Shown: piece after piece, positions 18,033 through 43,281 of the stretch
Layout of the letters: the number at the start of each line of letters is the position of its first letter
How positions within the stretch are numbered: position 1 is the stretch's first letter
Assembly: GCA_951406725.2 (NCBI GenBank)
Contig: OX597835.1
Coordinates: 22,010,001 to 22,074,000, forward strand
Length of the DNA: 64,000 nt
Source: Octopus vulgaris
Lineage: Eukaryota
Reading direction: 5' to 3'
Notes under the pieces: generated by a model
What the model saw: only the letters and a program-made list of their open reading frames with translations
Databases searched by the model: none
Told to the model about the DNA's origin: nothing
Made by a program: the position numbers and the translations under genes

Positions 18033-18126
18033 GCCTCGGTAGCGCAGTAGGCAGCGCGTCAGTCTCATAATCCAAAGTTATCGTCGAGCCATCTGAAGGT
18101 CGTGAGTTCGATCCTCACCCGGGGCA
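18033..18126 (+). tRNA. Elongator tRNA-Met(CAT) with a 21-nt intron (18070-18090) between positions 37 and 38
   Basis: GCCTCGGTAGCGCAGTAGGCAGCGCGTCAGTCTCATA[ATCCAAAGTTATCGTCGAGCC]ATCTGAAGGTCGTGAGTTCGATCCTCACCCGGGGCA. Acceptor stem GCCTCGG/CCGGGGC, T-arm GTGAG/CTCAC with a TTCGATC loop, anticodon CAT at 18066-18068. The spliced sequence is nearly identical to the metazoan elongator tRNA-Met as recalled. Confidence 0.95.
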
Positions 18127-37594: not shown

Positions 37595-39049
37595 TTATAA
37601 GATAACCATTGTCCATTCTCTTTGTTGCTAATATTCAAGAGGCCGAAATTCTGGTTTGAGGAAAATGTCCCCTGTTCTGTTCTGGAAGCAATGGAAAGGA
37701 TCAGAGGTGCTGCTTCTTCTTCCAATGAAACATTAAAGGCAAACACATGCATATGCAGAGAAAACAATGCACCACATACATAAACGGAGTCCTAACATAC
37801 ACATGCACACACATTTACACATCACATACACACACACACAGACAACATCACATAAATATACATGAAGGTACAAACTAATCACATGCATATACATCAATAC
37901 ACACACACACATGCACACAAACCACACCCTACACACATACATGAATATACAAGCAACACAATATATTTTCACATACATACATAAATATACACACATTCAT
38001 GTACACATACACACAAAAATGGTGATGCGAGTGGTAGTGAATGGAATGATGGCAGTGGTGGTGGGCATGGTGGTAGTGAAGCGATGGAATTGACATTTTG
38101 AAAGTACACACACACACATACATACACAGGCCACATTACACTAACCACACCATACACACAATATTTGAATAATAAAAAATGATATAAACGAGTTGGTCAT
38201 GGCTGGAATTCACCTGATGATTGGTCTGTGCAATCAGGATCAACCTATGGCTAAACAACAGCACTTCCATGTCCATCACCTTTAGTTGCCCTTAGCAAGG
38301 AATTCAATCTGTTGAATGTTCACTGATCAGGTTGCAGCTGGTTGGTTTTATGTCACCCTTAAGAAAGCCATCCTCCATACATCTCTTTCCCTACTCTAAT
38401 CAATCATATTCCACCCCAGTACCTTACTGGTAGAGAGAGAGAGAGAAGGAAGACATTGTGGCATAGCCCCACATTTTTCTGTCCCAACCTTTGAAAATCA
38501 GAAAAGTTGTGAAACCGGTTAAGCCTTTAAAAATAAACCCTCTAAATGACTCCCTGTGCATTTTCAATTTCTGTTTTTCTATATTTCTACCCATGTAGGA
38601 TAAAATAACTTTGTTTTCTATACTTACACACACTTATATATATACATATATATATATATATATACATATATGTGGTGCCGGTGCCGGTGGCACACAAGAA
38701 AACCATCCAAACGTGGCCGTAGCCAGTACCGCATCGACTGGCCTCCGTGCTGTGGGCACGTAACAAACACCATCCAATCGTGGCCGTTCGCCAGCCTCAT
38801 CTGGCACCTGTGTCGGTGGCACATAAAAACACCATCCGAGCGTGGCCGTTCGCCAGCCTCGTCTGGCACCTGTGTCGGTGGCATATAAAATCACCCACTA
38901 CACTCTCGGAGTGGTTGGCATTAGGAAGGGCATCCAGCTGTAGAAACACTGCCAGATCTGACTGGCCTGGTGCAGCCTTCGGCTCCCAGACCCCAGTAAC
39001 CGTCCAACCCATGCTAGCATGGAATGCGGACGTTAAATGATGATGATGA

Positions 39050-39086
<37 letters not shown>

Positions 39087-39091
39087 AGCAG

Positions 39092-39222
39092 CTAGGTACC
39101 TAACAACTATGCCTAACACTAACACCAAGATTGCCTGCTTCTTTTAGAGAAGGGAGAGAATTCTAAAAGAAGCAGGCAATCCTGGTGTTAGGGTTAGGCA
39201 TAGTTGTTTACGGGGTACCTAG
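39092..39222. repeat. ~130-bp hairpin/foldback element with telomere-like CCTAACACTAAC / GTTAGGGTTAGG arms
   Basis: CTAGGTACC..AACAACTATGCCTAACACTAACACCAAGATTGCCTGCTTCTTTTAGA is mirrored by TCTAAAAGAAGCAGGCAATCCTGGTGTTAGGGTTAGGCATAGTTGTT..GGTACCTAG. Confidence 0.8.
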
Positions 39223-40308
39223 TAGGGTACTGGGGTGGAATATGATCGATTAGAGTGGGGAAAGAGATGAATGGAGGATTGCTTTCTTAAGGGCGACATA
39301 AAACCAACCAGCTGCAAAGAGCAGGAAATATAGCAGTAGGACAAAGAAGGGTGTCTAGATGTGGAAGTATCCCAGTTTTAAGAATACCTGGAAGGAAGGA
39401 CAGCTGGCAATAAAATATCATCTCAACAAAACAGTCCAACCCATGCCAGCAGATGTAAAATTCTGTTATAGCTGCTGGCTATATATATATATAATACACC
39501 AATCCGACCGTGGCCGTTGCCAGCCTCGCCTGGCACCGGTGCAGGTGGCACGTAAAAAGCACCCACTACACTCACGGAGTGGTTGGCATTAGGAAGGGCA
39601 TCCAGCTGTAGAAACATTGCCAGATAAGACTGGAGCCTGGTGCAGCCTTCTGGCTTCCCAGACCCCCAGTCGAACCGTCCAACCCATGCTAGCATGGAGA
39701 ACAGACGTTAAACAATGATGATATATATATATATATATATATATGCGATTGTTTTGTGAATGTTCCGATCATAAATCTGCTCTGAAACAATTTTAACCTT
39801 CACTAAACAGTAACAGCAACAACAACAACAATGATATTCACTCAGTGGTATTGATATTGTATTCAGGCGTTAACCAATGAAAGTAAACATCTGTGAACGA
39901 GTCAAAAGTAGGTGGACTGTTTGACGCTGGTTTAGGATCAACGTAGACAGAGGGACGGCATTAGAGATTGTATTTACTTCTTCAGCCGTGAAACAAGGTC
40001 ATTTCTGGCATGTTTCAATTCGTTATTTACAAAAACTGAACAAAAAAAGGGAGGACGGAGAAATTATAATTGAACAGCTAATTAGCTCTTCGAAGATTCT
40101 TTTACTTTAAATATATTATAAAACTCTGTGTGTGTGTGTAAACACAAAAACACACACACATATATATCATCATCTGGTTAAGCATCCTCAGACAATACAT
40201 TTATATACACACACGTATGTGTGTGTGTGTTTAAATATATATATATACATATATATGTATATATACACATATATATGCATGTAAATACATAACATATATA
40301 TTTGCATA

Positions 40309-40599: not shown

Positions 40600-40632
<33 letters not shown>

Positions 40633-40756
40633 ATTCAAAAATATAAGGAATGGCCATAATAGGACATTCGACTCCCTAGAAAGAGCAGCCAAATTCAAAC
40701 CACTAATAGTTGTAATTCTGAAATTGAAAGAGAAATAAAAACATTTACCCCTTTCA

Positions 40757-40851
40757 TCTCTGGACTATGCATAGTTTCGGCAAACTTTAGTAAACAAATT
40801 AATTAAATTAAATTAAATTTATTTACAACTGGCGTGCCTCGTCAGCAGAGA
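40757..40851 (-). ncRNA. Second, identical type I hammerhead ribozyme on the minus strand
   Basis: Exact reverse complement of 41175-41269 over 95 nt, by eye. Confidence 0.88.
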
Positions 40852-41174
40852 AGCCAAGGACGAGTATATATCCATGAGGCGATGGTGAGGAAGCCTCAAG
40901 TCTATATGCTATAAATTTTCAAAATCTACCGCAATCGCGCGGTCTTCTCAGCAGTAAATATAAACTGCTGATTTAATTTCAAAATTAGCCAAAAAGTTTT
41001 TTGCTACCCTTATATTTATTAATTAATGATTTTTTGGCTAATTTTGAAATTAAATCAGCAGTTTATATTTACTGCTGAGAAGACCACGCGATTGTGGTAG
41101 ATTTTGAAAATTTATAGCATATAGACTTGAGGCTTCCTTACCATCGCCTCGTGGATATATGTTCGTCCTCGGCT

Positions 41175-41269
41175 TCTCTGCTGACGAGGCACGCCAGTTG
41201 TAAATAAATTTAATTTAATTTAATTAATTTGTTTACTAAAGTTTGCCGAAACTATGCATAGTCCAGAGA
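41175..41269 (+). ncRNA. Type I hammerhead ribozyme (Penelope/retrozyme-type), predicted cleavage after GUC at 41263
   Basis: Stem I TCTCTG/CAGAGA; core CTGACGA; stem II GGCA...TGCC, extended by GTAAATAAATT/AATTTGTTTAC; GAA; stem III formed by the 12-nt palindrome ACTATGCATAGT; C17. All core nucleotides are canonical. Confidence 0.88.
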
Positions 41270-41369
41270 TGAAAGGGGTAAATGTTTTTATTTCTCTTTC
41301 AATTTCAGAATGTCCTATTATGGCCATTCCATATATTTTTGAATGTAATGGAATTTGTATCTTTGTGGT

Positions 41370-41815
41370 ACCAGTGCCAGTGGCACACAAGAAAACCATC
41401 CGAACGTGGCCGTAGCCAGTACCGCATCGACTGGCCTCCATGCTGTGGGCACGTAAGAAACACCATCCGATCGTGGCCGTTCGTCAGCCTCGTCTGGCAC
41501 CTGTGTCGGTGGCACATAAAAACACCATCCGAGCGTGGCCGTTCGCCAGCCTCGTCTGGCACCTGTGTCGGTGGCACATAAAAACACCATCCGAGCGTGG
41601 CCGTTCGCCAGCCTCATCTGGCACCTGTGTCGGTGGCACATAAAATCACCCACTACACTCTCAGAGTGGTTGGCGTTAGGAAGGGCATCCAGCTGTAGAA
41701 ACACTGCCAGATCTGACTGGCCTGGTGCAGCCTTCGGGCTCCCCAGACCCCAGTTGAACCGTCCAACCCATGCTAGCATGGAAAGCGGACGTTAAATGAT
41801 GATGATGATGATGAT
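41370..41815 (+). mobile_element. Representative of the abundant retroposon 3' repeat with internal ~60-bp tandem units and a (GAT)n tail; other copies at ~6130-6352, 24105-24320, 31778-32092, 32440-32622, 38672-39052, 39497-39722, 46340-46672, 48147-48365(-), 57348-57725(-)
   Basis: Shared GTGGCACRTAAAAAGCACC units and the TGGTTGGCATTAGGAAGGGCATCCAGCTGTAGAAAC core. Confidence 0.8.
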
Positions 41816-41896
41816 GTATATTATATAGTCTTTGACCATCTTTTCTTTCTCACTGGACCGCTGGTAGCGGAGAATTTTTTGCTACCCTTATATTTA

Positions 41897-41931
<35 letters not shown>

Positions 41932-43281
41932 CCAGCAGCTATAACAGAATTTTACATCTGCTGGCATGGGTTGGACTGTTTTGTTGAGATGATATTTTAT
42001 TGCCAGCTGTCCTTCCTTCCAGGTATTCTTAAAACTGGGATACTTCCACATCTAGACACCCCTTGTGTGTGTGTGTGTGTGATGTACATGGCTGTAGGTG
42101 TATGTTTATATCTGTACATAAGTGCCTCTGTGTGAGAACATCGGTAAGTGTGTATGTGTAAGTGTTAGTGAGTGAGATGGAGTGTTGGTGAGTCTGTGTG
42201 TGATACACATTAGTCTAAGTATGTATCTCTATATAAATGTATGTGTGTGTGAACATGAGTGTGTTTGTGCATATGTGTGAATGTGTATGTGATATGTATG
42301 AGAGTAGGTATATATTTCTTTCTCTATATAAGTGTGTGTGTATATGTGTGTGAAAGAGTGAGAAAGAGAAGAGAATATTGGAGAGTGATCTATGTGTGTA
42401 AACAATTACATAAAAACCAATTAGTGAGAGGCTAATTATATTAAAAGATCATAAAACGATGTTGCAATTAACAGAAGAAATGTACAACATCGTTTAATTG
42501 TTGAATCAGAAGTAAAACACATTAACAAATATTATGAAGAATGTCTCTGTTAATTAACAGAAGAAAATTAAATACCAGTGCTACTGTGTTACTCTATGAG
42601 TGATATAAGTGACTAATTAGATAATTAGTGAACAGATCAAAGATACACTGGATTTTCGATCATAGACAGTATAACATTTCTATATTCATTTCTTGACTAC
42701 CCACAAGGGGCTAAAAACACAGAGGGGACAAACAAGGACAGACAATGGGATTAAGTCGATTACATCGACTCCAGTACATAACTGGTACTTAATTTATTGA
42801 CCCCGAAAGGATGAAAGGCAAAGTCGACCTCGGCGGAATTTGAACTCGGGATGTAACGACAGACGAAATACGGCTACGCATTTCGCCCGGCTTGCTAACG
42901 TTTCCGCCAGCTTGCCGCCTTTAACATTTCTATATTGTTAAGGATTATGCTTATGGTTAAGTTGTGTATAAGGAAATCTCTGGCCATCCTTAGGTCCCTT
43001 TTTGCAACCATAAGTCTTCTACATTTATAGAAAGTATATAGAAGTAAAACTAGATGTGGTAAATAGTATTTAGTTTTACTGGGTTTTGAAACTGGATGGT
43101 AAAAATTCCTATGATTAGCACCCACCTACATGTTTAGCAATGGATTAAAATTATTATTTTTTTTTTTGTGTGTGTGTATGTTAGAAAATTTGGGTTGGTC
43201 ATGTGATAGATTATTATCTTTAAATTAGGTATGGAGCCATTTTGTAACTTTTGTGAACGACTATTTGTTGAGATTCCTGTT

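Follow-up and report, generated by a model that had tools for sequence, protein, structure and literature searches.

The palindrome at the centre of the analysed window (the whole stretch of 64,000 nucleotides of Octopus vulgaris DNA) is, judged from its sequence, very probably one insertion of a protein-free family of 467-base units with a predicted hammerhead ribozyme, likely copied into a TA microsatellite by the enzyme of a Penelope-like element (PLE). The features of PLE-type insertions are all present, namely 5' truncation, a partial tandem, an inverted copy at the 5' end, a tail at one end and a microsatellite target. The locus in the window is a decayed, ordinary copy of this family, here termed family A. 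A preliminary description had proposed a non-autonomous family of retrozyme or Penelope kind with predicted ribozymes and no ORF, and both the arm maps of the copies and the head-to-tail unit agree with this proposal.

Results

Structure of the locus

The inverted repeat of about 710 bp with identical, outward-facing 95-nt type I hammerheads noticed in the preliminary description measures 712 bp (40633-41344). The two arms match at 97.5% as complements along 281 nt, to which an outer piece of 37 nt is added, and the right arm lacks 45 bp that are present in the left one. Remnants of the target microsatellite enclose the insertion, (TA)n on the left (40606-40632) and (AT)n on the right (41902-41930). 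The inverted arm (40633-40995, minus strand; 95% identical to the unit at L012:1398-1864) is 5'-truncated, covers unit positions 105-467 and ends at the untailed 3' site. The forward arm (40998-41347, plus strand), likewise 5'-truncated, corresponds to unit positions 72-467, from which 45 bp are deleted at about 41311. It is followed by a high-copy, SINE-like retroposon (41348-41813, plus strand) with 62-bp internal repeats, a (GAT)n end and many matches of 77-95% elsewhere in the 64-kb window. Since family copies run from the unit end straight into the tail, and a 5-bp ATGTA duplication flanks the retroposon (41343-41347 and 41814-41818), we concur with the earlier reading of it as a later interruption.

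Behind the retroposon lies the tail (41816-41901, plus strand), which corresponds to unit positions 1-97 of the next repeat and ends at the second fixed 3' site. The tail also contains the second copy of a 27-mer that has exactly two exact occurrences within the window, at 40997 and 41875 (E 4e-8). This recurrence had been noted before and taken as a pair of direct repeats bounding a monomer; the recurrence stands, but the bounding repeats do not, because unit positions 72-97 are present twice in a partial tandem whose tail was split off by the later retroposon. The proposed monomer of about 430 bp has to be revised to the 467 bp obtained from family copies; the estimate fell short because the window copy has the 45-bp deletion and an 11-nt shorter tail.

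A nearby duplicate (38431-39100) repeats the left flank over 228 bp (97%), contains the retroposon (90-95%) and enters the right flank, but has neither of the retrozyme arms nor the tail. Additionally, 39349-39493 is a perfect inverted copy of 41917-42061. The duplicate either lost the palindrome or reflects a local rearrangement or haplotype artefact. We considered it as an empty site and dropped this reading, as the retroposon lodged inside the element is present there too. Further away, positions 18033-18126 (plus strand) resemble a tRNA whose anticodon loop contains a 23-nt insert (54 bits in Rfam); the sequence was not called by ARAGORN and represents either an intron-bearing tRNA or the head of a SINE.

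The predicted hammerhead

The two 95-nt hammerheads (41175-41269 on the plus strand, predicted cut after 41263; 40757-40851 on the minus strand, predicted cut after 40763) are identical and face outward. In the plus-strand copy, the 6 bp of stem I (TCTCTG/CAGAGA, 41175-41180/41264-41269), for which an extension is predicted, are followed by the CUGACGA core from 41181, the 4-bp base of stem II (GGCA/UGCC) within a stem II region of 60 nt, GAAA, and a stem III consisting of ACTATGCATAGT, a perfect 12-nt palindrome. The GUC triplet ends at 41263 and the predicted 3' product starts at 41264. These elements had been listed correctly in the preliminary description, including the product start. In terms of sequence, a CUGANGA core, GAAA, an NUH triplet, three pairing stems and an open stem I, as demanded of type I hammerheads, can all be read.

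The Rfam hammerhead models, suggested earlier as a check, gave no match in the window at the gathering score nor at E<=10, and we attribute this miss to what is likely its cause, the 60-nt stem II. Rfam matches to miRNA families in the window were below the gathering score and were rejected as generic hairpin resemblance. Our prediction of a ribozyme is based on reading the core and the stems directly from the sequence and on the compensatory changes that sister families display. The hammerhead fold of the monomer lies 2.1 kcal/mol above the minimum-energy fold. Stem III alone can form 4 bp, while two strands pair as a 12-bp duplex at -15.9 kcal/mol. Circular units are computed to be well folded (z -5.0 for the 467-bp unit, and -4.0; 40 shuffles). 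A caution against such predictions comes from Xenopus, where in vitro cleavage failed for eight of nine predicted retrozymes (10.64898/2026.07.22.740005).

Family A in the genome

The family A unit (467 bp, L012:1398-1864) is non-coding and joined head to tail. A query with one arm against the 2.8-Gb genome yielded 1426 candidates, 40 of which were scored; identity was 94-98% in each of these along about 280 bp. A 23-mer spanning the cut had 131 exact matches genome-wide. The copies and tandem joins expected in the preliminary description were thereby found, but the linkage to a Penelope RT/GIY-YIG ORF that it had also considered was not seen at 73 PLE loci. We pooled the top one-arm matches, the first 100 of the 131 23-mer matches and all 70 matches of a later search, and dropped 22 overlapping loci from the 156 retrieved, leaving 134 family A loci. 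The arms were head-to-head at 78 of these, tail-to-tail at none and not head-to-head at 56, and 54 of the 134 loci consisted of single arms.

Arms end at defined positions. Among 221 arm 3' ends, 100 were at 467, 87 at about 97 and 34 elsewhere, so that 187 fell on two sites 97 nt apart, each about 15 nt behind a hairpin. (AT)n was adjacent to 95 of the 100 ends at 467 and to 78 of the 87 at 97 (173/187 arms with a fixed end). The 79 inverted pairs comprised 50 with an untailed end and a tail, three with two tails, the window locus, and 25 with an arm ending elsewhere. The window pair shows two untailed ends until the retroposon is bridged and then an end and a tail; counted in this way, the two kinds of end are combined in 51 of the 54 scorable pairs. 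The 5' ends, on the other hand, are scattered, and arm lengths and junctions differ at every locus. The arm maps of the 134 loci contain unit sequence only, with no attached RT ORF and no LTR/PBS/PPT organisation. Arms that pass unit position 1 continue into position 467 of another unit and never into ORF sequence; two consecutive complete hammerheads occur at several loci, for example L093, and the longest arm measures 938 bp. At L092:2953-3760, a copy of family A is situated between two tracts of PLE ORF sequence on C8.

Copies differ by about 3-4% from the family majority. Arms of the same locus diverge by 4.1% compared to 6.6% between loci (56 comparisons, which are non-independent), and share 5.3 rare variants per kb within a locus compared to 0.49 between loci. 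This similarity could point to one source template or to later gene conversion in the palindrome. Because the first sample was chosen on a word spanning the cut, 5' ends at the cut were not assessable there and a 3'-anchored sample (n=105) was drawn for this purpose. It showed no pile-up at the cut (2/105 within 336-346, p 0.71); the wider interval 336-366 contained 12 of the 105 ends (p 0.046, the uniform null being a lenient one), with no sharp peak. Contigs from four presumed-RNA runs cover the 467-bp unit, although contigs cannot reveal circles. In a check of the centre junction of the palindrome with contigs from four runs, no contig bridged it, but contigs are uninformative for repeats. 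Our literature searches, among them one for an octopus retrozyme, listed no paper on family A, which may already be catalogued as a repeat in Repbase/Dfam.

Sister families and other hammerhead repeats

Family E came to light through a 57-bp look-alike, a fragment of it beside the end of a PLE (L033). Its 493-bp unit is alignable to that of family A over the full length and differs by 0.4% from its own majority, a 20-mer has 820 exact matches, and arms comprise up to 9-10 units. This very young family has a GUA cut triplet (L156:1500-1990, minus strand; L147-L175, L272-L361), and some of its junctions contain iterated AAAAATTT filler. Family C (L102:1837-2223, minus strand) is an older, diverged relative with 69% identity to unit A and a long stem II. 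Families A, E and C all keep the core, a stem II region of 56-68 nt and a stem III of 12 nt that can pair with itself as a 12-bp duplex. The letters of the hammerhead differ among them with pairing kept, and the end hairpins are likewise altered but still pair. These pairing-preserving changes are the best evidence that the predicted fold has been selected.

We sampled the first 100 of 181 family E loci, each chosen on one untailed arm. Inverted pairs were present at 76 of the 100, and the partner arm was tailed in 68 of 70 scorable cases and untailed in none. As to 5' ends, 20 of 99 anchored arms start within 360-370, next to the predicted cut at 361/362, whereas the preceding 60 nt contain 10 starts and positions 391-470 contain 17 (Poisson p about 1e-12; the 360-370 interval had been suggested by 30 loci, most of which are among the 100 tested). 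Since the arms that start near the cut mostly do so 2-8 nt behind it, stalling at the base of stem I has to be taken seriously as an explanation other than cleavage. Of the variants within family E arrays, 39 are present in every covering unit, 15 occur in some and 91 in one. The prevalence of one haplotype per insertion is as expected if a circle was copied, and would equally fit a homogeneous source array; the 15 partial variants do not fit a pure monomer circle.

A relaxed search for hammerhead patterns turned up an unrelated family with short stems. The repeats at L096-L125 form an older hammerhead family in which stem II is short and the unit measures roughly 300-330 bp; they also end in (AT)n and are sometimes inverted. 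A minimal hammerhead is found at L117:1500-1545 in a common repeat (stem I GACAC/GUGUC), and again in L128 and L150.

A co-resident Penelope-like element

A search for GIY-YIG domains gave 6136 candidates; we examined 150 and compared 73 PLE loci with the units. The search revealed many elements belonging to at least five PLE families by protein similarity, and none of the 73 loci shared DNA with unit A or E. L033 was rejected as a link between PLE and unit, its match being the family E fragment mentioned above. A young, intact two-ORF PLE (L076:945-4590; L081 near 2057, minus strand) encodes a 765-aa RT/GIY-YIG ORF (L076:2293-4590) with RVT_1, GIY-YIG and a CX4CxxC linker of the Neptune/Nematis type, a motif of these PLEs reported in PMC8557442. 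It has two 3' ends about 38 nt apart in front of (AT)n, and each of its eight scorable inverted pairs combines an end with a tail (45 loci, 29 of them chosen on a tailed arm). This element, too, has no DNA in common with unit A or E, and we regard it as a candidate partner of family A. Its pLTR contains a possible hammerhead with a UUGAUAA core, a U3-A8 variant as described in PMC4209133, and ACAUGU as stem III.

Discussion

Published PLE insertions are partial tandems truncated at the 5' end, where an inverted copy is frequently found, and carry a tail of 30-40 bp, often at one end only, with a bias for (TA)n (PMC8557442). In an assay with a purified PLE protein, both strands were nicked and extended, and the start points were two internal sites which mark the limits of the tail; the hammerhead of the assayed element required protein and was dispensable for insertion (PMC11167929). 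A comparable route can be proposed for family A. Tandem source copies would be transcribed and their hammerheads, which probably associate into dimers by means of the 12-nt stem III, would cut the RNA to unit length, which may then circularise. A PLE RT/GIY-YIG protein would use this RNA in trans and nick both strands of a (TA)n stretch, with one 3' OH priming cDNA synthesis at the unit end (467) and the other at the tail site (97), either on one RNA or on RNAs of one source. If the two cDNAs terminate prematurely and are then joined at their ends, a palindrome would arise as a by-product. At the window copy, the SINE-like retroposon would have landed at the unit end afterwards. Several observations weigh against this explanation: no PLE among the 73 loci is similar in sequence, the rule is violated by three tail+tail pairs, with 25 of the 79 pairs being unscorable, the tail has 97 nt instead of the 30-40 of described PLEs, family A 5' ends do not accumulate at the cut, the active fold is 2.1 kcal/mol above the minimum, and the similarity of arms could stem from gene conversion.

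In a more speculative extension, which we hold only tentatively and consider somewhat less probable than its opposite, the insertions would record PLE chemistry, that is, a two-strand event carried out by a PLE dimer on RNA of a single haplotype, with ribozyme-cut monomers giving rise to the arms that start at the cut site and RNA circles, copied up to ten times, to the long homogeneous arms. If true, an in-vivo role for the hammerhead would be shown and the rolling-circle mobilisation of animal retrozymes by PLEs would be settled.

An autonomous PLE whose complete copy escaped detection, the family copies being its pLTR ends after 5' truncation, is an unlikely alternative. Ends, target and inversions are indeed those of truncated PLEs, including the intact PLE found here (PMC8557442), and hammerhead pairs on opposite strands 100-700 bp apart have been ascribed to truncated PLEs (PMC4209133). 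However, arms extending beyond position 1 enter position 467 of another unit rather than an ORF, those of family E reach 9-10 units, and the unit has neither homology in the 73 PLE loci nor the linked ORF that an autonomous PLE would carry. The assembly-based explanation, a foldback of the assembly or of a chimeric read, is the least probable of those weighed here: the missing contig across the centre junction would agree with it but is uninformative for repeats, while an artefact is contradicted by the 2.5% divergence, the 45-bp deletion and the retroposon that distinguish the arms, and by the same layout with a fixed end rule at 78 loci. Hardly more credible is a foldback or MITE-like DNA transposon with TIRs and the hammerhead as a passenger. 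The 37-bp terminal inverted match at the window locus and the TA target would suit such an element, yet its right end runs on for 97 nt into the tail, and variable 5' truncation and partial tandems are marks of retroposition. The asymmetric ends of 51 of 54 pairs already contradict it, and 54 of 134 loci are single-armed.

The preliminary description had seen in the palindrome a possible built-in on/off switch. A palindrome selected as a regulatory unit, be it a ribozyme switch or a source of dsRNA, appears highly improbable to us, even though the arms in the window are still 97.5% alike and read-through RNA is computed to form a very stable hairpin (-531 kcal/mol, 90% paired). dsRNA would likely be formed if the locus is transcribed. 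However, whichever side transcription comes from, the antisense arm is made first and all 95 of the 95 ribozyme bases are paired with antisense, so that the read-through RNA would simply be off. Nor does the palindrome appear to be a designed unit: arm lengths and junctions vary by locus, 56 of 134 loci are not head-to-head, an inverted layout is normal for PLEs (PMC8557442) and shared by the autonomous PLE found here, and the palindrome is missing from the duplicate nearby. As copies are about 3-4% from the majority, their young age accounts for the intact state.

In 2020, several enzymes were still considered for the spread of animal retrozymes ('LINEs or PLEs among others'), with mobilisation by PLEs being proposed (PMC7229834), and later work argued for PLEs from co-occurrence and pLTR phylogeny only (10.64898/2026.07.22.740005). 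For family A, the insertion footprint itself, with two priming sites, one per strand, and a TA target, matches a co-resident intact PLE. With a short RNA and an intact candidate protein at hand, a direct in-vitro test would be easy. The long stem II of the predicted ribozyme also implies that whole ribozyme families are overlooked by Rfam scans.

With EN+ PLEs of the Neptune/Naiad type (PMC8557442) and Anolis PAc (PMC11167929), family A shares 5' truncation, partial tandems, an inverted 5' copy, the tail at one end, the (TA)n target, a type I hammerhead near the 3' end and two stem-loop priming sites. In contrast to EN+ PLEs, it has no ORF and its tail comprises 97 nt and not 30-40. The rule of one tailed arm is nearly strict in family A, whereas start sites were used equally between strands in the PAc assay (PMC11167929). 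Minimal PLE hammerheads (PMC4209133) resemble those described here in their palindromic helix III, predicted to favour dimeric cleavage, and opposite-strand pairs 100-700 bp apart were already noted for them; those of family A differ by the 6-bp stem I with its predicted extension, a stem III capable of 4 bp and a stem II of about 60 nt. The closest counterparts are metazoan non-LTR retrozymes (PMC7229834, 10.64898/2026.07.22.740005). Expression as RNA of unit length, in linear and circular form, also belongs to the criteria for such retrozymes, and the RNA of family A may likewise circularise. The words 'inverted' and 'microsatellite' are absent from the main text of PMC7229834, and among the papers listed in our searches there was no account of the one-tail rule in retrozymes. 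Unlike the retrozymes of these reports, family A has a 60-nt stem II, a 12-nt palindrome as stem III and mostly 5'-truncated, two-armed insertions. In common are a unit of several hundred bases that is low in GC, lacks coding sequence and contains a single type I hammerhead, head-to-tail repeats next to solos, a well-folded circular form and co-resident PLEs, and the 467-bp unit is larger than the 150-450 given in PMC7229834 but within the 51-972 of 10.64898/2026.07.22.740005. By the sequence criteria laid out in PMC7229834, family A is a metazoan non-LTR retrozyme.
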